DNA of 42,945 nt from a virus (lineage: Duplodnaviria > Caudoviricetes): positions 1 through 42,945 of the IMG/VR virus record IMGVR_UViG_3300037311_000013. One strand, written 5' to 3'. A program made the position numbers and the translations under genes. Positions 16,254 to 35,704 of the stretch are shown here, in pieces (within the stretch, counting starts at the first letter, position 1; the number at the start of each line of letters is the position of its first letter). Below the pieces are notes generated by a model that searched no databases, was not told where the DNA came from, and worked only from the letters and a program-made list of their open reading frames with translations.

Positions 16254-16496
16254 ATGAGCATCGTGCTTGCTGCCGCACTCCGCCCGCTGGCTCTCCTCGT
16301 GATGCTGCTTACTGTGCGCTCAGTAGTGCTGGCGGCATCGCCATTGCTGCTCCGGCTCCAGCGCCGACACCCAGCCGTCGCGGACCTTCTTGCAGCAACG
16401 CCTCAAGAGCTGCTGCGACTTTCTGCTTCTGGGCTGGCGGCATGGCGGCGCGGTCGAGTACGCGCAGTGCCTCGATTGGGTCACGATAAAGCGTGA
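16254..16496 (+). CDS. Candidate antisense membrane peptide overlapping the 3' end of an ejection gene
   Basis: MSIVLAAALRPLALLVMLLTVRSVVLAASPLLL; the hydrophobic part begins in an otherwise non-coding gap; no SD. Confidence 0.4.
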   Translation: MSIVLAAALRPLALLVMLLTVRSVVLAASPLLLRLQRRHPAVADLLAATPQELLRLSASGLAAWRRGRVRAVPRLGHDKA

Positions 16497-19950: not shown

Positions 19951-21702
19951 TCAGTAGCCTCCGAAGTTCATGAAGCCGCTTCGCAGCTCGTCGGGGTCGA
20001 ACGAGAGGATCTCCGGGATGACGGGGGTAGCCGCCGCGGGCTGCGGCTGGTACATCCGCCACTGCGGGAAGTCGAGCGCGATCCCGGGGCGCTTGGCGGA
20101 GAAACTCTCCAGCCACGCGCGCCACTCCGGGTCGCCGGACTGGACCGCCGTGTAGGCGTTGTACGCATTCTGCCCCGCCTGACCGAGGCCGCTGAAGCTG
20201 CCCCAGTCGCCGCCACCCGGCGCGAGCTGCCCAAACTGCGGATTGAAGCCGTACTCGCGCTGAAGGTAGAGCCCGGGCGCCCACTCGCCGCCGCCCTCGC
20301 CCTGCGCGAGCCAGCGGTCTTGCGGAAGCGTGTTGAGGTAGTCGACGAAGGACTGGCCGATTGCGTAGGGGGCTGCCTCGCCGAGCTTGCCGAAGTTCTG
20401 GAACGGAGTTTCCGGCCGGCCGCCGACGCCGCTCGTGGAGAGCCAGTCCTTCCACCCCGAGACGAAGTCCGCATCGGACTGGCCGGCGCCCTTCCACGGG
20501 TCGAAGATCCAGTCGGGGTTGCGATCGAGAACGTCGCCCCACAGGTTGCCGAGAACCTGCCCGGCCACTTCCTGCCCGACCTCGTTGTACCACTCGCGCT
20601 CCTGCTCGCGAGCGGTCGGATTCTTGTTCTGGCCGATCCGCAGCAGCTCGTTGAAGGCGCCCATGATCGCGCCGGCGGCTGGGTTGATGAAGCCGACGAT
20701 ACTGGAGAGAACCTCTCCCGGGTTGTCGCTCTTGATGCCATCGACGACGCCGGCGGCGTTGCCGATCCAGCTCAGGCCGCCCCCGCCGCCACCCCCGCCG
20801 CCGCCCCCGTTGGGGGTGCCGCCAGTCTCTCCGGGCATGAACTGCGGGATGTTCCCCGTGGAACCTCCGCCAATAAGCCCGCCGATCGGGCCAAACTCGG
20901 TGAGGTCTGGCTTGAAGTCGATGGAGTCCGGCCGATCCCACGCGCGATCGGGAATATCAATACCGAAGCCCCAGTCGGTCGGCGGCAGGGGCGGGGGCGG
21001 CGTTGTCGGCTGGCCGTTGCCACCGCCGCCACCGGAACCGCCAGAGCCGCCCGCGCCGCCCGCGCCGCCGTCGCCGGTGTCCTGCCAGCCCGGCGGGAAC
21101 TGGTTCTCGTAGGCTTGCACCGCGGCCTCGTACTCGGCGAGCTGGCGGTTGTAGTCGTCGATGGCGGCTTGATCGGGCGTGCCGATCCCGCGCAGGACGC
21201 CGATCTCACGCTCAAGAGCTGCCTTCGCTGCCGGGTCGCTCTCGGCCTGCGCCACGGCCTCCAGCTCGCGGATGATCTGGTACTGGCCCCACCCGGTCGG
21301 CGCCGAGGGGGCGGTCGGCGGCGGCGGCGCGCCCTGCGGCTGCTCCGGCGGCAACCGGCCGGCGCCCTGCCGCCCGGCCGCGTTGATGATGCCGATGATG
21401 GCCTCCCAGTCGTAGTCCCCGCCCTGATCCCGCGGGGCCGTGCCGGTGTAGCCGTAGCCGCGCAGGATCGAGTCGACGCGCCCCTGCGCGCTACCGAGGC
21501 CGCTGCCACTCGAAGTACCGCCACCCGCGCCCTGACCGCTCCCGGGGCCCTGTCCGGCCCCCTGCGGGCTCTGCGGCTGTCTGGCGAAAGACAGGATGTC
21601 GGGCAGGGCGCCCATGGAGTCGCCGCCCTCGCCCCACGGGACGGCGATCGGGTCGAACCCCCGATACCACGCCGGCGAGCTGAGCGGGGTGAGGCCGCGC
21701 AT
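19951..21702 (-). CDS. Gly-rich internal virion / ejection protein
   Basis: TGATG-coupled ATG at 21702; poly-Gly linkers. Confidence 0.65.
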   Translation of the reverse strand: MRGLTPLSSPAWYRGFDPIAVPWGEGGDSMGALPDILSFARQPQSPQGAGQGPGSGQGAGGGTSSGSGLGSAQGRVDSILRGYGYTGTAPRDQGGDYDWEAIIGIINAAGRQGAGRLPPEQPQGAPPPPTAPSAPTGWGQYQIIRELEAVAQAESDPAAKAALEREIGVLRGIGTPDQAAIDDYNRQLAEYEAAVQAYENQFPPGWQDTGDGGAGGAGGSGGSGGGGGNGQPTTPPPPLPPTDWGFGIDIPDRAWDRPDSIDFKPDLTEFGPIGGLIGGGSTGNIPQFMPGETGGTPNGGGGGGGGGGGLSWIGNAAGVVDGIKSDNPGEVLSSIVGFINPAAGAIMGAFNELLRIGQNKNPTAREQEREWYNEVGQEVAGQVLGNLWGDVLDRNPDWIFDPWKGAGQSDADFVSGWKDWLSTSGVGGRPETPFQNFGKLGEAAPYAIGQSFVDYLNTLPQDRWLAQGEGGGEWAPGLYLQREYGFNPQFGQLAPGGGDWGSFSGLGQAGQNAYNAYTAVQSGDPEWRAWLESFSAKRPGIALDFPQWRMYQPQPAAATPVIPEILSFDPDELRSGFMNFGGY

Positions 21703-22736
21703 CACCCGCTCCCGAAGATTCCGCCGAGCCCGGGGATCTTCCCGAGGATGTCGCCGATCTTGCCCGGCGTGCCCGGCTGGCCGTTGACGCCCGGCGTGCC
21801 GAAGAGCCACTCGCCCGCCTTGCCGCCGCCGGCGGCGAGGATCGGCCCGAGCCCCTGAAGCAGGTAGGCCGGGAGCATATCCTGCGAGCTGGTGCGCTGC
21901 TGAAGGCTGCCAGCGAGCGGGTTGATGTAGGAGCCGTAGGACTTCGCCAGCTCCCACGGGGCCATGAACTGCGCCATCTGGCCCTGAAGCTGCTGGTTCT
22001 GGAGCCCCTGACCCTGCGTGCCCCAGTTGAACGTGTCCTGCGCACCCTGCTGGCCGATGCCGTAGCCCTGCCCGAGGAAGCCGAGGCCCATCTGCCCCAT
22101 GTTGAAGAGGTTCTGAGCTGCCGCCTGCTGAAGCGCCATGTCGGACTGCGCGGCTTGGTTCGCGAAGCCAAGCCCCTGCGAGTAAGCGCCGCCGCGCATC
22201 TGCGCGCCTACGTCGGCCGCCCGGTCGGCGTAGCCACGGTTCGCGATCGCGCTCATGACGGCTTCCTGTGAGCCGCCGGCCTGCCCCGCCATGTTCGCCC
22301 CCATGCGGATGCCCGGGAGCATCTGCTCGGTGAGCTGGCGGTAGGGGTCACGAAGCGCCGCCGTGACCATCGAGTCCATGTAGGGGTTGTTCGCGACGTT
22401 CTCGGCGATGCCGAGGTACTGCTGCGGGTTGGTGACCCACGGGTTCATGCCGCCGGCGAGCGCGGAGCCGAAGTAGCCGAAGCCCTGCTGCATCCCCGGG
22501 AGGAGGCCCTGCCCCTGCTGCTGGTAGGCGTTGGCGATGCCGCCAGCGCCGCCGGCCGCCGCCGCGCCCTGCTGGATGCCCTGCGTCTGGAGCGGGTCGA
22601 TCGGCGCGGTGTACGGCCCGCCCCACGGCCCCTGCTGGAGGAGGTTCTGGATGTAGTTGACGCCGCCGAGCGTGGGCTGCTGGAGCGGCCCCCACGGGGT
22701 TCCGGTGGTCGTGCTTTCGTTGTCGAAGAGTCCCAT
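21702..22736 (-). CDS. DNA transfer / pilot protein (P22 gp7-like position)
   Basis: Q/G/A/M-rich; TTTGTPW, NPYMD, GGSQEAV motifs. Confidence 0.7.
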   Translation of the reverse strand: MGLFDNESTTTGTPWGPLQQPTLGGVNYIQNLLQQGPWGGPYTAPIDPLQTQGIQQGAAAAGGAGGIANAYQQQGQGLLPGMQQGFGYFGSALAGGMNPWVTNPQQYLGIAENVANNPYMDSMVTAALRDPYRQLTEQMLPGIRMGANMAGQAGGSQEAVMSAIANRGYADRAADVGAQMRGGAYSQGLGFANQAAQSDMALQQAAAQNLFNMGQMGLGFLGQGYGIGQQGAQDTFNWGTQGQGLQNQQLQGQMAQFMAPWELAKSYGSYINPLAGSLQQRTSSQDMLPAYLLQGLGPILAAGGGKAGEWLFGTPGVNGQPGTPGKIGDILGKIPGLGGIFGSG

Positions 22737-26484: not shown

Positions 26485-27609
26485 TTACTTGTTGAGGTCG
26501 CGGATGCAGGCGGAACCCTTGGTGTTCCGGTTGACGAGCGTGTATTCGGCGGTCAGCAGAGCCTCCTCCGAATCGCCCACCTTGCCGAGCGCCTCCGACT
26601 GCATCTCGCGCAGCCGGCCGAGCGCCCAGAGGTCCGGGTCCGCCAGCAGGATCGACGCCTCCGTGTCGGCGGCGAGAGCGCCGAGCGTGAAGCGGTCGAT
26701 GATGACGGCGACCGTGCCGTAGGGCGAGCGGTAGACGTCGACGACGTTGGTGATCGTCGTCTCGTTCGCGCCCTCCAGCACGCGCGCGCGCTGCGCGTTA
26801 TTGCCGCCCGTCGGGTCGATGTAGGCGAAGTTCGCCATGATCTGCGCCTGCTTGGCGCTCATGATCGCCTGCGTCACCGTGCCGCCGGCCTCCCACGCGA
26901 CCTGCTGGGTGGCGAGGAGAATCGCCTCCGAGAAGTCGCGGTTGGTGCCGGTGGTGACCGTCAGCGCGCCGGCGCCGGCCGTGCCGGTGACGTCGCCGCC
27001 GGTGCCGACGTTGTGGTTGCCGGCGAGGCGGTTCGGCACCGTCTCGGCGGCGGCCGTCTCGGCGAAGATGAGCTGGAACGCGCCACCCATCCGGCCGGCG
27101 GTGCCGGTCGGGCCGAACGGGTAGCCGGCCGCGACGCCGCCAGTGACCGGGGCCTGCGGGGAGTTGTCGCTGAGGAGCGAAGCCTCGATGTCACGCTTCA
27201 GCTCCCGGCCGCGCTTCATGATCTGGTAGTCCAGCTCGTCGCCGCGGCCGTAGGTCTGCACCCGGCGCATGGTGCCCGCAACCGACGCCGTCTCGGTGAA
27301 GAGCTGGACGTAGTTGAAGAGCATCGCCGGGGTCGTGGCGTTGAAGTCGGCGCCGCTCGCGGCCGACGGGCGGTAGCCCAAGACCTTGTTGTTGGCGCGG
27401 CTGGCGGCGCGGAGTTCATCCTGCTGCCAGTAGTGCTGGATGTCCTTGCAGTCGACCTTCGGGAGCTGGCTGTAGAACGGCGTCTCGTATGGCGAGATGA
27501 GTTCGATGATGTCCTCCACGGACTCGACGACGCCCTCGGTGTTGACCGCGGTGTTCATCCGCGCCGTGACGGTCGCGTTCGGCGTGGTGCTGATTACGGT
27601 ACGGGCCAT
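26485..27609 (-). CDS. Major capsid protein (DUF5309 / SU10-like)
   Basis: IELISPYETPF...HYWQQDEL...NYVQLF..TASVAGT...DELDYQIMKRGRELKRDIE...LGKVGDSE...EYTL. Confidence 0.9.
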   Translation of the reverse strand: MARTVISTTPNATVTARMNTAVNTEGVVESVEDIIELISPYETPFYSQLPKVDCKDIQHYWQQDELRAASRANNKVLGYRPSAASGADFNATTPAMLFNYVQLFTETASVAGTMRRVQTYGRGDELDYQIMKRGRELKRDIEASLLSDNSPQAPVTGGVAAGYPFGPTGTAGRMGGAFQLIFAETAAAETVPNRLAGNHNVGTGGDVTGTAGAGALTVTTGTNRDFSEAILLATQQVAWEAGGTVTQAIMSAKQAQIMANFAYIDPTGGNNAQRARVLEGANETTITNVVDVYRSPYGTVAVIIDRFTLGALAADTEASILLADPDLWALGRLREMQSEALGKVGDSEEALLTAEYTLVNRNTKGSACIRDLNK

Positions 27610-29265: not shown

Positions 29266-29482
29266 GGACGATGATCTCCGCCAGTCTTCACTTGCGACCT
29301 TCTGGGCCGACCGAACGCTCGACCCTCGGAAGAAGGCGGCGTTTATCGCGTGCATCCATCGTGGGGAGTCGTTCCTCAGTAGCTCGCTTCTGCGAGAGCG
29401 CCTTCGCGAGATTGACGCCGATCCTGTAATCCCAGCGCCACGAGTGCCGCGACGGGCAATCCTGCTGCCCCATATTCCTTGA
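29264..29482 (+). CDS. Candidate antisense ORF overlapping the 3' end of the polyvalent gene
   Basis: MDDDLRQSSLATFWADRTLDPRKKAAFIACIHRGESFL spans an otherwise empty ~110-bp gap; no SD. Confidence 0.3.
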   Translation: MDDDLRQSSLATFWADRTLDPRKKAAFIACIHRGESFLSSSLLRERLREIDADPVIPAPRVPRRAILLPHIP

Positions 29483-32400
29483 CGTGCTGGCGGAGCCCTT
29501 CGAGGCCCGCCTGCTGCACGATCCTGCGGAAGCGCTGGATGTCACGACGGGGAATCGTATCACCCCGCTTCGCCAGCTCCTCGTCGAGCTGGGCAAGCTC
29601 ACGCGCGCGCTCGCGCATCGCGTCGGTCGACAGAGCCCCAGCGATGGCATCCGGGTCGGACGTGCTTTCGAGCTTGTCCAGTAGCGCCATCGTCGCCTGA
29701 CCGGAGTTCTTGCGGCCCCACGACGGCATCTCATAGAAGCTCTTGAACTGGGCGGGCTCGACGTAGTTGCGTGGCCCGAAGAGGGTGTTCGCCAGCTCCA
29801 CGGTCTGCCGCAGCTCGTCCGGGCTCATCTCGGGGCCGTCGAACGACGGCAGGACGGTGAGCGCGCCGCCACCCCGGTCGATGACATCGAGGCCGCCCAT
29901 CCGGTAGGCGTTCCGGGCGTAATCGACCATCTCGGGGCGCGCGAAGCCCGGTAGGTCTACCTGCACCCCGTAGGCGTTGGCGGTCGCGCGGTCGGCCGGG
30001 CTGAGGGTGTGGGCCGCGCTCGCTTCCTGCGCTTCGAGGATGCCGCGGAACTGCTCGGTCACCTCGGCGCGCTCCAAGTCCTGCCCAGACAGCGCCCCGC
30101 CCGGGATGCGCGGCGTGTAGACGTTGAGGGGGTTCTCCTCCAGCTCGCCGGCGGAGTTGCGGTAGCTGCCGCGGCCGTTGCGGAGAATCTCCGGCTGACT
30201 CCAGTCGTCGTACAGGACGTCCATGGGGCCGCCGCGGATGATCGCGTTGTAACGGTCCCTCGTGAGTTCGTCGGCATCGGCCATGGGCGTCCGCAGCGGC
30301 GGGACGACGTCGTGGCCGACCTTCTTGCCGGGGATCGTCTCCGAGGTCACAAACAGCGTGCCGGGCTCCCCCAGAGCGCTGTATGGCGCCGGACGCGGCG
30401 CGAAGGGGTCGCCCCGCATCTGGGCCAGCGCCCCCGTCCTGACGCCCTCTCCGGCGGCCTGACGGATCGCCTCGCGGCCGGGGTTGACCAGCCGGGGGGC
30501 CGCCTTCGCGACGGCCGGCACGCCGCCCAGCGGGGCGACCGTGGAGGCCAGCACGCCGACCGGGGACTCGGGGTTGCCGCCGAAGGCGCGGATGGCCTCA
30601 TCGGTGACCCATGGGGCCTCGTACTCGGGCGGGTCATAGTTCGAGCCGCCGCGCCCCGCGGAGGCCATGCTCATGAGGTCGCCCGCGAAGCGGATCGTGT
30701 CCGGGACGGCGCCCACGATCGCGCCAGCCACGCCGGCCGCCGCGTTTCGCTCGAAGCGGCGGAACTCGTCCCCGAGGTAGGCGACGCGCTCGCCGGCCTC
30801 GGCGATGCGCGGGTCCGGCGCGGAGTGGCTCAGGGCAGCGGCGTTTGCGTCGTCCTGAGCGAACGCAAGAGCGCCCGTGATGCCCGCGCCAGCCCCCGCC
30901 CGACGGGTGATGCCCTTGGGGAGGAAGTAGCCGGCGCGCCGGTAGTTGGTGGCTGCGTCGCCCGGGAGCGCGGGCTGATCGAGGGCGAGGCGGACGCGCT
31001 CGACCGTGTCGATGTACGGCTCCAGCGGGCCGCCCGGGGCGTCACGGCCGCGCAGCTCGCTGGCGCGTGACCCGATCTCGTGAGGGGTCTTCCAGTAGCC
31101 GCGAGAATCGTCGCCGAAGAGGCGCGACAGCATGAACGGGTCGTCGGAGGCCGAGATGCTTGCCTCGCGCTCGATGTGCGGGATCTCGTGAGTGAGGAGC
31201 GTCCCACGCTGATTGAAAAGGCCGGTGAGCGGGGCAAGCTGGCGCGAGAGTGGGCTGGCGTCGAACGTGTTGTCGATGCCGACCACGCTACCCGCCGGTG
31301 TGACCCGGCCGTTCCATGCGTCGCCGGTGCGCCAGCTCGCGGAGCCGACGTAGCCATCGCGGTCGTCGGGAAGGACAGTGAGGGCGCGGTACTCTGGGTC
31401 GAAACGGTAGAGGTCCGGGAGGTCAGCGAACTCCCCGAGGAGCGCGCCGCCCTTCGCGCTGCGTGCGGCGGGGTTCGTCCCGATATCCATGAAGTCGTCG
31501 TTTGGGCCCATCGCCGGAGAGCCGAGCCTGCTCCAGTCGATCGTGCCATTCCACGCCGGGATCTCGCGGCCGAGCATCGACATCGCGTTGTCGAGCGTCG
31601 TGCCCTCGCGAATCTCACGCTCGACGATGTCGCGGGGCAGGACGAGGCCGCGACCGCTCGGCGTGTAGAGTCCGCTCCCGCCGTTCTCGATCTGCATATC
31701 CGGCTGCCAGCCGGTGCGGTCGAGTACGTCGGTGATGCTGTCGCCTTCCTGAAGCGCCTTCGCGGCGTCACGACGGGCATCCATGAGCGCCGACGCCTCG
31801 CCCATCGGGATCGTGCGCGGGATGCGCGTGGAGAAGGCGGCTTCAGCGTCGTCACTCGCGAGAGCGCCGAGGCCGATGGCGCCCGGGGCGACGGCCCACG
31901 TCGGCCACTCCCCCTTCTTGGCGATCTCCAGAAGCGCGGGCGGAATCACGAATGACCACGCATCGGACTGATCCGGCCCCAGCTCTTGCCTCGTCTCCTC
32001 GATGATCTCGTCGCGGCGGCCGCGGACGGCGTCTTCCCAGTCGCTCATCGCGCGCGTGTAAGCCTCGTCGTCAAACTCGCCGGTTTCCTCGCCGTCCTCG
32101 TCGAGAAGGGGGAAATCCTCAGCGTTGGGCTCGTCGTCAGCAAGCTGTCGACGCGCGATTTCTTCCGCCTCGTCCTCGTCGACGTCTGCGCTATCAAGCA
32201 CCGAGTCGAGAGGCTTCGACGGCGGGTCGAGCTGGCCGCCCTCGTACTGGCGCATGAACTTCTGGGCAATCTGCGACGCCTGCTTGTCGTAGATGCTCTG
32301 GTAGCCGGCGAGGTTCTTGGGGTCCCACCGCTGCGCCTGAACGTAGCCCGGAGTCCACTCCAGCGTGTCGAGCCCCTTCTGTGCGGCCTCGGTCAGGGCG

Positions 32401-33581
32401 GCTTGGAACATCCGCTCGACCCAGTTGGTGCGCCACGGGAGGTCGGCGGGAATGCGCGGGTCTACGCCGCGCTCTGCTTCTGGCAGCCGGAGCGCGTAGT
32501 CGTATTCGTTCGCGCGGTCGATCTGCTTGTTGAGCTTCGTGAGCTTGCGACCCAGATTCTCCATGCCCAGCCAGTCGCGGCCGTTTCTGGCATCGACGAT
32601 CGCCTGCTTGAGTTCATTCTTTTCCTCAAGCAGGCCCTTGAGAACCTCGCGGTAGTCGCCAGTGAAGTCGCGGTAATCCCACGGCTTCGTCTGCTGGTAG
32701 AGATCGTTCTGCCACTCCTCGACCATGAGGGCGCCGCCGCTGCGCTCCTTCGTCCTCATGTGGCCGAGGTAGTGTTCGTCGCCCGGGTAGTGAGTGCGCG
32801 ACCTCGCGCTCGAAGGCAGCGGAGTCGCGCCCGGCGTGCGGAATACCGTCTCTTGATCCCGGTCACCGTATGGAGTCGTGTATTGCGTCCACTGAGGCTG
32901 CCGCTCGATGCGCGGCGCAGACAGGCGCGCGCGAGTGGCCTCCTCCAGCAGGCTTGGCGGCAGCGCCTCGTTGAGCGCGCCCTTCACCTTCTCCGCGAGC
33001 TTGAGCCCAGAGTTGTCGCCCTCGATGCCCTCCATGAGGGATGGCAGCTCAAGATCCGACCAGTGCCGCATCCGTAGCAGTAAGCCGCCCTCAGAGGCGA
33101 TGCGGCCGCCCATGAAGGCTTTCCACACCTCGTCACGGACGTCGCTCCCCACCGCCTCTTGCGGCCAGAGCTTCACCTCGCCCTGCGGATTCACCGATAG
33201 CCAGCGCCCGAGCGTCGGGCTGTACCCGGCACCTTCGCGCATGAGCTGCCCGGCGAGCCCCGTGTAGACGCTCTCGACGGACTCGCGGACGCGGTCCTCG
33301 CTGACCTCCTGCGGGACGGGCCGACCGCCGAAGACGCGGGGCTCGACGCGCATCTGCTTCGAGCGCAGCTCGTTGACCCACTCGGTCCCGTTGAGCGGCC
33401 CGAGGTCATCGAAGCCAGCGAAGCCATTTGGTAGCTGCCGCTCGAAGTGTTCGATCTCGGCTGGCTTGACGCCCTTGTTCTTCAGGAACGCGCGGAGCTG
33501 CGTGCCGGTCCACTTCTGCTTCGGCCCGGCGGCCTCGATGGTCTTCAGCAGCGTGGAGACGAAGCGCGGCCCGCTCATCAC
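29376..33581 (-). CDS. Large polyvalent protein (three modules, including an LPD23-like region and a HExxH metallopeptidase-like domain)
   Basis: FLKNKGVKPAEI, HMRTKER...LMVEEWQND, RTGW, LPDLYRFDPEY, LLTHEIPH, YWKTPHEIGSR; coupled to the portal stop. Confidence 0.75.
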   Translation of the reverse strand: MMSGPRFVSTLLKTIEAAGPKQKWTGTQLRAFLKNKGVKPAEIEHFERQLPNGFAGFDDLGPLNGTEWVNELRSKQMRVEPRVFGGRPVPQEVSEDRVRESVESVYTGLAGQLMREGAGYSPTLGRWLSVNPQGEVKLWPQEAVGSDVRDEVWKAFMGGRIASEGGLLLRMRHWSDLELPSLMEGIEGDNSGLKLAEKVKGALNEALPPSLLEEATRARLSAPRIERQPQWTQYTTPYGDRDQETVFRTPGATPLPSSARSRTHYPGDEHYLGHMRTKERSGGALMVEEWQNDLYQQTKPWDYRDFTGDYREVLKGLLEEKNELKQAIVDARNGRDWLGMENLGRKLTKLNKQIDRANEYDYALRLPEAERGVDPRIPADLPWRTNWVERMFQAALTEAAQKGLDTLEWTPGYVQAQRWDPKNLAGYQSIYDKQASQIAQKFMRQYEGGQLDPPSKPLDSVLDSADVDEDEAEEIARRQLADDEPNAEDFPLLDEDGEETGEFDDEAYTRAMSDWEDAVRGRRDEIIEETRQELGPDQSDAWSFVIPPALLEIAKKGEWPTWAVAPGAIGLGALASDDAEAAFSTRIPRTIPMGEASALMDARRDAAKALQEGDSITDVLDRTGWQPDMQIENGGSGLYTPSGRGLVLPRDIVEREIREGTTLDNAMSMLGREIPAWNGTIDWSRLGSPAMGPNDDFMDIGTNPAARSAKGGALLGEFADLPDLYRFDPEYRALTVLPDDRDGYVGSASWRTGDAWNGRVTPAGSVVGIDNTFDASPLSRQLAPLTGLFNQRGTLLTHEIPHIEREASISASDDPFMLSRLFGDDSRGYWKTPHEIGSRASELRGRDAPGGPLEPYIDTVERVRLALDQPALPGDAATNYRRAGYFLPKGITRRAGAGAGITGALAFAQDDANAAALSHSAPDPRIAEAGERVAYLGDEFRRFERNAAAGVAGAIVGAVPDTIRFAGDLMSMASAGRGGSNYDPPEYEAPWVTDEAIRAFGGNPESPVGVLASTVAPLGGVPAVAKAAPRLVNPGREAIRQAAGEGVRTGALAQMRGDPFAPRPAPYSALGEPGTLFVTSETIPGKKVGHDVVPPLRTPMADADELTRDRYNAIIRGGPMDVLYDDWSQPEILRNGRGSYRNSAGELEENPLNVYTPRIPGGALSGQDLERAEVTEQFRGILEAQEASAAHTLSPADRATANAYGVQVDLPGFARPEMVDYARNAYRMGGLDVIDRGGGALTVLPSFDGPEMSPDELRQTVELANTLFGPRNYVEPAQFKSFYEMPSWGRKNSGQATMALLDKLESTSDPDAIAGALSTDAMRERARELAQLDEELAKRGDTIPRRDIQRFRRIVQQAGLEGLRQHVKEYGAAGLPVAALVALGLQDRRQSREGALAEASY

Positions 33582-35704
33582 ACGTCCCCGATGGATGCGG
33601 CGCGCGACTGCTCGCGCTCGATCTGGAGTTCGGCCTTGTCGACCTGAGCGTCGTGCTGGAACTTGCGCTCTTCGAGGTTCTGCTTGGCCGCGGACGTGGC
33701 GGCCTGAAGGTCAAGAGCTTCCTTCTTGAGCTTGGGCTCGGCCTGCTTCGCCTGCGCCTCGGCCATGAGCTTCGCGACCTCGATGCCGATGCGCTGGGCC
33801 ATCTGCGCCTGCTGCTGCTGCTGCATCTGCTGGGCCGCCTGCTGCGCGAGCTGGAGGCGCTGGACAACCTTCGGATCGTTCGGGTTGCCGAGCCAGTTGG
33901 GCTGGCCAAGGAGGTCGAACACCTCGGACATCGCGGCGTACTGCTCCTCCATCTGGTAGAGCGGCGCGAGTGTCTGGTTCGCCATGACCATCGAGTGCAG
34001 CATGATGGTGTTCTGCGCGCGCTTCTGGCCGTACTCCGGCGTGAGCGCGTCGTCAACCTCCATCTCGTCGCCCTCGCCGAGCTGCTTGGGGTTGACATCG
34101 GTGACGTTGCCGTCGACGTCGAGCTTCACGGGAACGTCATACTCGAAGCCGAGCTTCCAGAGGTCTAGAAGCAGCGGGCGCATGAACATCTCGGCGATGA
34201 GCTTGGCGAGCATCATCGGCCGCGCGCTGCCCACCTCGATGAGCTGCGCGATCATGTCCTTAGCGTTCTGGTGCGTGATGATGTCGCCGGTGTTAAGCCC
34301 GCGGCCCATCCGCATATCGCCCGTCCGCATCTCCTTCTGCGTGGCGAGGACTTCCATCATCGGCATGGTGGCCGCGGAGATCGCGGGCTGCGGGACCACG
34401 GCGAAGGCCGCCTGCGGGTCCGCGGTGTCGACGATGCCGCCGATCGGGTTGTCGATGAGATCGCGCGGGTTGCGGATCTTCGAGAGGTCCGCGGCCCGCA
34501 CGCCGGCATTGACCCGATGGACGTTGTCGATGACGCCGCGGGTGACGTTCGAGGCCGCGCGCTGCACGTCCATGGCTACGTCCGCGACCGACAGGCCGAC
34601 GGGCTCGTGCGCGATGCGGTAGGCGGTCGCGAAGCGCAGCGGGATCTCGTCAACGCGCTGCTTGAGGAGGATCGCGGCGCCGGACTTGATGACTTGCCAC
34701 AGCTCGGCGTCCGTCTCCGGCTGGTCACGGGGGGTCGTCATGTCGACGCGGAGGAACGCCTCCTCGATGTCGATCTCATCGAGCCCCTTGATGGTCGAGC
34801 CGTTCGTCGAGCGCCGGTTGCGGGCCATGACGGTTCGATCGTCGGTGAGGGCGGCGCCCGCGGCTGACTCCAGCTCCTCGACGATCGCCGGATCGAAGCC
34901 TTCCGCGATGAGTTCATGACGCCGCTTCCTATAGGTGATAGCCACCCCCGGGATGCGCTCTGGGTCGGAGAGATCCTCCACGCCGGCGAAGACGTGGACG
35001 TTCTCGGGCTTCAGCACCTCGATGCAGATTCGCTGCCGCTCCTCGACCATCTTGACGCGGGCGGTGATGAGCTTGCGGCGCGTGAGGGCCGGGCCGAGCG
35101 GCGTCTGCACCTCGACGTCCTCCCACTCCTCGGCGATGGGCTGAATGTCCTCGATGGACCCCGTAATCACCGCGGCCTCGATCTCCTCCTCGGGCACGCG
35201 CTCCACGTCGCCCCACGTCACCTTGCGATCGGTCTTTATGTACCGCTTCACGCACGCGAACCGCTTCAGGCAGAGGTCGTGGAAGACGTCGTGCAGGATC
35301 GCGGTGCCCGGGTTCTCGCTGAACAGGATGCGCTTGACGTACTTCGTCCGCAGCCGGGCGGGCTCGACATCGCGCTCGCTCATGGGGCGGAAGCGGATGA
35401 CGTCGCGAGAGCCGGCAAAGGTCTTCATGAGCTTCGCCTTCATGCTCTCGACGGACTCGAACACCTCCATCGAGACGTAGTCCGAGGTGTTGGTGCCGGC
35501 CGGCTGCGGCTCGACACCGCGGTAGTAGTCGACGGCGAGGGCGAGGTCGTCCTCTTGATCGTCGGAGTCGCCCGTCGCTGACGAGCTGATCTCTTGGTCG
35601 ATGAGGGCGGCCAGCTCCTCGTCGGTATAGCGGTATTCCGGCTCGGCAGGCTCCGCTTCGCCAGCCACGAGATCCGCCATCACGTCCGCCTCGACCGCCG
35701 CCAT
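33578..35704 (-). CDS. Portal protein (P22-like)
   Basis: AVDYYRG, YVSMEVFESVE, FRPMSERDVEPA, GLSVADVAMDVQR, Q-rich barrel C-terminus. Confidence 0.92.
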   Translation of the reverse strand: MAAVEADVMADLVAGEAEPAEPEYRYTDEELAALIDQEISSSATGDSDDQEDDLALAVDYYRGVEPQPAGTNTSDYVSMEVFESVESMKAKLMKTFAGSRDVIRFRPMSERDVEPARLRTKYVKRILFSENPGTAILHDVFHDLCLKRFACVKRYIKTDRKVTWGDVERVPEEEIEAAVITGSIEDIQPIAEEWEDVEVQTPLGPALTRRKLITARVKMVEERQRICIEVLKPENVHVFAGVEDLSDPERIPGVAITYRKRRHELIAEGFDPAIVEELESAAGAALTDDRTVMARNRRSTNGSTIKGLDEIDIEEAFLRVDMTTPRDQPETDAELWQVIKSGAAILLKQRVDEIPLRFATAYRIAHEPVGLSVADVAMDVQRAASNVTRGVIDNVHRVNAGVRAADLSKIRNPRDLIDNPIGGIVDTADPQAAFAVVPQPAISAATMPMMEVLATQKEMRTGDMRMGRGLNTGDIITHQNAKDMIAQLIEVGSARPMMLAKLIAEMFMRPLLLDLWKLGFEYDVPVKLDVDGNVTDVNPKQLGEGDEMEVDDALTPEYGQKRAQNTIMLHSMVMANQTLAPLYQMEEQYAAMSEVFDLLGQPNWLGNPNDPKVVQRLQLAQQAAQQMQQQQQAQMAQRIGIEVAKLMAEAQAKQAEPKLKKEALDLQAATSAAKQNLEERKFQHDAQVDKAELQIEREQSRAASIGDV

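Follow-up and report, generated by a model that had tools for sequence, protein, structure and literature searches.

The virus record IMGVR_UViG_3300037311_000013 (Duplodnaviria; Caudoviricetes) is a stretch of 42,945 bases, hereafter the window, that encodes an SU10-type portal, a major capsid protein, an adaptor, a scaffold and probable ejection genes. Every window coordinate given here is on the minus strand. Overlapping the end of the portal gene is a gene (29376..33578) for what is apparently a cargo protein of the polyvalent type, and the joint between its modules is portable, resembles a signal peptide and is apparently undescribed. The cargo protein has three modules separated by two joints, each an uncharged Gly/Ala-rich stretch that ends in A-x-A. 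The modules are distributed independently, the joints lie at their boundaries, and modules are exchanged at the joint. We argue that the chain is probably cut at the joints, whichever enzyme does it. Our preferred scenario is narrower and we give it somewhat less than an even chance: the product would be packaged in the head and, on entry into the next cell, cut by the type I signal peptidase of that host.

The product is likely 1400 residues long since its start ATG (33578) overlaps the portal stop as TGATG. An in-frame GTG at 33581 gives 1401 residues, and our numbering counts that GTG as residue 1. A first-pass annotation of this DNA had described the 1401-residue open reading frame (ORF), its coupling to the portal and the two Gly/Ala stretches inside it; the ORF, the overlap and the two stretches are real, and the stretches lie where they had been placed. 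Joint 1 (31836..31907, residues 559-582) is an uncharged Gly/Ala stretch followed by SDDAEA|A, with a predicted cut after residue 581. Its segment from WAVAPG to DDAEAA covers residues 562-582 (31898-31836). Joint 2 (30837..30905, residues 893-915) consists of RR, an uncharged Gly/Ala stretch and QDDANA|A, with a predicted cut after residue 914, and it reads from RRAGAG to DDANAA over those same residues (30905-30837). The uncharged run is 18 residues long in joint 1 and 15 in joint 2.

A profile that was built from 57 phage matches excluding the cargo protein, and so tests the joints independently, ranks joints 1 and 2 at the top of the protein (13.4 and 9.8). The next separate site scores -8.0, and the maximum over 300 shuffles was 8.0. 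The first-pass annotation took DDAxAA to be the motif. Two copies of it arise in only 1 of 20,000 shuffles, but the pattern was picked post hoc, after being seen. In the related phage L001 joint 1 is nearly identical, and joint 2 reads EQAEAA after its uncharged stretch. L004, whose portal is 59% identical, begins with an unrelated module that is followed by GAVGLGALAESDEAEAA and an LPD23-like module 2. The DD is thus a local variant. The homologs P0008 and P0152 carry SDANA and ADANA at the joint 2 position, and the wider family has P-x-[DE] rather than DD. These deviations in L001, the homologs and the wider scan matches lead us to reject DDAxAA as the defining motif. In the family the joint consists of some 16 uncharged residues, rich in Gly/Ala, and then (P/S)-x-[DE]-A-[EN]-A|[GA]; the uncharged stretch has a median of 16 residues, is 65% Gly/Ala and is weakly hydrophobic. 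The joint is constrained as a peptide. As a separate observation, the block at 31692-31907, which spans joint 1 and the first part of module 2, shows 92-94% DNA identity with L001 while the rest of the gene is far more diverged, and it is possibly a recent recombination patch.

The joint was sought in IMG/VR with a DNA scan for nine codons without A in the second position, then P-[DE]-[DE]-A-E-A-G. This yielded an estimated 240 stretches, of which 123 were fetched; 82 were distinct and in frame, and 57 passed a Gly/Ala rule. The other 25 of the 82 failed the rule, and 7 of these were terminase N-termini. Dropping two off-frame ORFs left 55 copies, 43 internal and 12 as N-terminal leaders. Three rule-failing matches were re-added by hand for the survey of joints per protein, the HExxH count and the BLAST-end test. 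Among 20 loci chosen for having flanking sequence, 16 joint genes directly adjoin terminase or portal, one is a gene away, one lies elsewhere and two have incomplete neighbours. The joint precedes ART-PolyVal, LPD23, DUF7178 and GNAT domains, and proteins that share it carry ART-PolyVal and LPD23 above cut-off. A single protein can hold as many as three copies, and the phages that carry the joint have portals of two families. One segment between joints matches a protein that stands alone in mycobacteriophages. A strict scan for GLGAL..AEA gave 3 loci in IMG/VR, all already-known relatives, and 37 distinct in-frame matches in metagenomes, two of them phage-cargo-like and one resembling a twin-arginine (Tat) leader. 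A literature search, largely without subscription papers, found no description of the joint.

Some by-products of the scans must be noted. A probable terminase family with a conserved PPIFPDEAEAG near its N-terminus (L196, L219, L220, L223, L225, L256, L280) is a false positive. In L199, L222, L226, L259, L268 and L269 the joint gene follows terminase with no portal adjoining, and an adaptor-like or tail gene comes next. A second recurring tag, [KA]GGxV, often with DTMxxEL, stands after module 1 at internal boundaries and C-termini. Its carriers are another clan of these phages (L079, L106, L107, L138, L077, L133; P0037, P0050, P0141, P0147). This tag resembles the KGGKG start of mature P22 gp7 after OpdA cleavage (PMC8402733; this and the other PMC-numbered papers are cited here from excerpts).

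The modules have separate histories. A phmmer search with residues 202-1401 against 1.84 billion representatives gave 252 matches, and among the 150 listed nearly all are to module 1 alone or to module 3 alone. Modules 1 and 3 have separate homolog sets and differing folds, so several unrelated domains share one chain. Proteins that were found without the motif combine them differently. P0005 and P0152 have a DUF7178-like module, a joint, module 2, a joint and module 3; P0109 has module 1, a joint and module 2; in P0059 a joint precedes another pair of modules. L004 swaps module 1 while keeping the joint and module 2. BLAST alignments among 45 proteins, made with the joint masked, have 926 internal ends, and 281 of these lie close to it, against a null mean of 96 and a null maximum of 172. 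Segments were also clustered by single linkage, but the largest cluster probably results from lumping, so we rely on the BLAST-end test only. The earlier suggestions that the modules are exchangeable and that the motif marks boundaries between shuffled domains are both borne out.

The first-pass annotation treated the element as a single recurring tail, but it is really two. The hydrophobic tail is indeed common at true C-termini, while A-x-A|G is nearly restricted to places with further sequence behind it. Among terminal homologs the tail is retained in 72 of 97 cases (26/46 for module 1 and 46/51 for module 3). A-x-A is present in 1 of the 97, and in 0/51 for module 3. When proteins were found by module or portal homology instead of by the motif, 10 of 11 A-x-A joints were internal. 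Not every internal module end has a joint. In giant proteins module 1 is followed by neither tail nor A-x-A (0/57), and mid-sized internal cases of module 1 pass the tail rule in 1/24 and have A-x-A in none. The module-1 end profile behind these counts missed the cargo protein, L001 and P0109, all of which have both elements. Internal cases of module 3 have the tail without A-x-A in 3/3.

The cargo protein itself illustrates the difference. It was said to have three tails, and the internal two do end in A-x-A. The third, C-terminal one (29424..29474, residues 1370-1386) has no adjacent A-x-A, is followed by 15 more residues and scores -11.6 with the joint profile. The very last residues are ALAEASY (29379-29420), with A-E-A two residues before the stop and charged residues between the tail and A-E-A. 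Similar near-terminal remnants are seen in P0023 and L001, where the L001 protein ends in a Gly/Leu tail and then REEDAES. The 632-residue probable ejection protein was thought to end in the same tail. Its Gly/Ala hydrophobic C-terminal stretch (16312..16386) is similar, scoring 17.2 for the tail part, but there is no A-x-A and another stretch of the same protein scores 15.4, which makes this weak support.

If the chain were cut after A-x-A, both natural ends would therefore be restored: a hydrophobic tail upstream and a Gly/Ala-started N-terminus downstream. The natural N-termini (minus Met) of 23 motif genes score like the residues after a joint, with a mean of -0.4 vs -10.1 for 115 other ORFs (p 4e-8, with sequences that are not independent). 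L258 begins with the same type of sequence that follows its own first joint. The restored ends are our main, though indirect, argument for cleavage. The pattern of tails that are kept at C-termini where A-x-A is nearly absent also fits a cut site. We consider a cut at the joint, by all candidate enzymes taken together, to be the better bet.

We argue that host signal peptidase I is the most attractive candidate. The type I signal peptides that it cuts are characterised by a hydrophobic h-region, a turn residue near -6 and Ala at -3 and -1. In the joints both alanines are in place, -6 is Pro or Ser and +1 is a small residue. The -6, -3 and -1 positions were fixed by the scan pattern, yet they were free in the set found by homology. 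An apparently cellular FAD (flavin adenine dinucleotide) oxidoreductase, L530, has a twin-arginine leader that ends in GLGALTDDAEA, which is nearly joint 1. The profile, the two alanines and this leader uphold the earlier remark that the element looks like a signal-peptidase site. The cargo chain would be packaged in the phage head and would enter the next cell unfolded and N-terminus first. The hydrophobic stretch would lodge in the inner membrane, so that the upstream module lies on the cytoplasmic side and A-x-A at the outer face, which is the orientation of a signal peptide. Signal peptidase I would then cut after A-x-A at each joint, and the upstream piece would carry its usual hydrophobic tail while the downstream piece would begin with Gly/Ala, as such modules usually do. 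With one conserved joint, effectors could be gained, lost or rearranged by the phage within one gene slot. Packaging is argued by analogy. The sole virion evidence is from a single-module gene in the same slot, gp5 of phiGT1, whose product has a Gly/Ala tail and gave 12 spectra in virions (PMC10386132, Table S3). The phiGT1 scaffold and two non-structural proteins had 2-3 spectra in the same work (PMC10386132).

A number of points weigh against this scenario. The 55 copies were selected by the motif itself. No cultured phage with the joint was found in searches of cultured phages. The same DNA pattern in cell genomes gave 120 fetched matches, none of which looked like a cargo joint, a leader or a signal peptide; 15 of the 120 pass the simple rule with a best score of 26.5, against viral scores of 29-60 that are partly self-scored. 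The acidic end of the joint is not typical of host leaders, and L530 is 1 of 37 metagenome matches. The Tat consensus is S/T-R-R-x-F-L-K, and neither joint has it in full: joint 2 has T-R-R but no Phe, and joint 1 has no RR. Both joints are internal, unlike an N-terminal signal peptide with its basic n-region. Internal tails without A-x-A occur in P0013, P0064, P0123, P0147, the L080 group and the second joint of P0109, and the A-E-A of P0023 stands just two residues ahead of the stop. If cargo travels through a sealed ejection channel, it might bypass the periplasmic face of the membrane. Finally, the producing cell could export the leader forms, and this would be at odds with packaging.

One can imagine a scenario where the joint is never cut. 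Each module would keep it as a tag that binds the scaffold, the ejection channel or the membrane, and the protein would work whole. The tail alone is kept at 72/97 true C-termini, so it has a role without a cut, and P0023 has the whole motif at its end. There are precedents too, since P22 ejection proteins are recruited through the scaffold (PMC8402733) and the N4 virion RNA polymerase is packaged unprocessed (PMC5512222). However, an uncut tag explains neither why A-x-A is nearly confined to internal and leader positions nor why the residues after it look like N-termini. We regard this scenario as somewhat unlikely.

A cut at A-x-A does not have to be made by signal peptidase. It could happen in the producing cell or prohead through another enzyme, be it a peptidase of the host cytoplasm, an HExxH peptidase that the phage supplies in trans or a head protease. 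The host enzyme OpdA trims P22 gp7 (PMC8402733), processing by MPTase domains has been proposed (Iyer et al. 2017, PMC5512222), module 2 carries HExxH, and the leader forms resemble removable propeptides. On the other hand, a head protease was not found among the 28 window ORFs scanned, and a soluble protease would have no need for 16 uncharged residues upstream of its site. HExxH is found in only 4 of 36 motif proteins, so a peptidase in cis cannot be general; general self-cleavage is rejected because the other 32 do not have it. We think a cut by one of these other enzymes is unlikely.

The joint could also be a leftover of gene fusion without a present function, where the former tail of one gene runs on into the former start of its neighbour. 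It does match the tail plus the N-terminus of standalone genes, and the near-identity of the joint 1 block to L001 could reflect recent exchange. This scenario is improbable because A-x-A|[GA] recurs between unrelated domains, in phages with two portal families and in as many as three copies within a protein, whereas free tails do not carry it. Least probable, and rejected, is a DNA-level recombination site for cassette exchange with an incidental peptide, because all synonymous codons occur at all seven fixed joint positions even though modules are exchanged there; short homology may still aid exchange as a side effect.

What the modules do is partly visible from models and family searches. 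Module 1 (31839..33578, residues 2-581) has a core at residues 228-562 that is predicted to have a GNAT fold with coiled-coil inserts and a conserved EExQxD motif. The model of this core has a predicted local distance difference test (pLDDT) score of 78.6. In the top 50 rows of a structure comparison all 12 whole-span matches are acetyltransferases or the ICL2 C-terminal domain (Z 8.1-9.4), the best example being Elp3 (Z 9.4, root-mean-square deviation 2.4, 104 aligned), and the remaining rows are coiled coils. These Z scores are middling, and Foldseek with the module 1 model gave nothing significant. The family of this module, with an EEIQSDxHQ motif (31896-32900 in the window; L068-L188), has about 960 motif matches in IMG/VR and no Pfam model. 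It appears to be an unnamed GNAT-fold domain of polyvalent proteins.

Module 2 (30840..31838, residues 582-914) has an LPD23-like start, HExxH at residues 798-802 and a downstream Glu835. It is likely a zincin-type peptidase, judging from these residues. HExxH and E835 are kept in L001, and P0005 shows a variant spacing. The LPD23 match has an E value of 0.075, which is below cut-off, as are those of four homologs (2.7e-4 to 5.5e-3). Module 3 (29379..30839, residues 915-1401) has hydrophobic stretches at residues 946-960 and 1006-1025 and a core at residues 1070-1368 with predicted ferredoxin-like subdomains (pLDDT 89.8, best structural Z 7.9). The structure checks that had been proposed for the modules gave a predicted fold for module 1. 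They went less far for module 2, where profile comparison aligned the LPD23 part alone (21 columns, probability 39%), and for module 3, where solved structures matched nothing beyond ferredoxin-like pieces, which does not show a new fold. Two hydrophobic stretches lie at the start of module 3 (30507-30746), and a segment that looks similar by eye makes up the last module of P0109; this suggests that the hydrophobic segment is a fourth exchangeable unit.

The cargo gene adjoins the SU10-type portal (33578..35704; PF23899, E 7.8e-99), whose stop overlaps the cargo start. L001 has a full-length cargo ortholog with 49% identity, where the portals are 87% identical. The 632-residue ejection protein is 92% identical in L001, so the cargo changes fast. 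No cargo homolog was found in distant portal relatives (about 30% portal identity), and the portal-adjacent slot holds a small gene or none in the four of them with gene lists examined. The cargo is therefore a lineage-specific occupant of the slot. Whole-protein searches of cultured phages, Pfam, PHROGs, NCBIfam and PDB sequences gave no match, nor did a word-based protein search at near and shorter lengths, nor module 1 in the whole-protein round against IMG/VR. The ESM Atlas returned only unnamed viral clusters of about 400 residues, below 0.9. The first-pass annotation had noted that this slot often holds MuF head proteins, but Pfam and PHROGs detected no MuF domain in the cargo protein, whole or in parts. 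Elsewhere in the window the major capsid protein (26485-27609; 17926-19059 in L001) looks far more diverged than the flanking scaffold and adaptor, which suggests an exchange of the capsid gene relative to L001. A 668-residue Gly/Pro-rich ORF with no family match (19951-21957) lies among the probable ejection genes.

Several known systems resemble this one in part. In flavivirus and alphavirus polyproteins host signal peptidase cuts at the endoplasmic reticulum during synthesis and yields membrane proteins. There too internal signal-like segments separate the modules of one viral polyprotein, but the cut proposed here would act on cargo that had been packaged and was entering a bacterium. Type I (Sec/Tat) signal peptides have the same uncharged stretch, Pro/Ser at -6, Ala at -3/-1 and small +1. 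Unlike them the joint is mostly internal (43/55), acidic at -5/-4/-2, without a consistent twin-arginine and rare in cell genomes. T4 internal proteins carry a capsid-targeting sequence. P22 gp7, with its host protease OpdA, is a virion-delivered protein that loses a leader by proteolysis and so is a precedent for host processing (PMC8402733). Both the P22 and T4 cases are single N-terminal leaders with other motifs, and neither has internal repeats between swappable domains. MuF-toxin fusions also place variable effector domains in the portal-adjacent slot (PMC5512222, PMC9503650), with the MuF domain that the cargo protein seems to lack. Sulfitobacter phage phiGT1 gp5 sits between portal and scaffold and has a Gly/Ala tail (PMC10386132), but it is one module with no internal joint and is not a detected homolog of the cargo protein. 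It does match the second ART-bearing segment of L199.

A further comparison is with phage polyvalent proteins. They are multi-domain proteins of portal-terminase phages with LPD23, HExxH peptidase, ART and GNAT domains (PMC5512222), and the cargo gene sits among the head genes of such a phage as they do. Iyer et al. 2017 (PMC5512222) predicted that they are injected and are split into units through self-cleavage by peptidase domains. Here, by contrast, the boundaries are marked by a joint that is portable and in most cases has no peptidase in cis. In the main text of PMC5512222 (the supplements were outside the search) the terms 'glycine', 'transmembrane' and 'signal peptid' do not occur.

The joint bears on how polyvalent proteins come to be divided into working units, and on how phages select non-structural cargo and move it across the host envelope. 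The 2017 self-cleavage proposal, as far as the excerpts of PMC5512222 go, names no site, whereas the joint gives exact predicted cuts after A581 and A914. The joint also marks domain boundaries in unannotated proteins, and it helped to isolate the GNAT-fold family here. A doubtful generalization is that many uncultured portal-terminase phages assemble their injected effectors as modular polyproteins around one universal plug-in joint, and that the signal peptidase of the host separates the modules at the inner membrane during entry. If true, this would be the bacterial-virus counterpart of the signal-peptidase-processed polyproteins of animal viruses, and it would provide a portable tag with which proteins of choice could be delivered out of a phage head.

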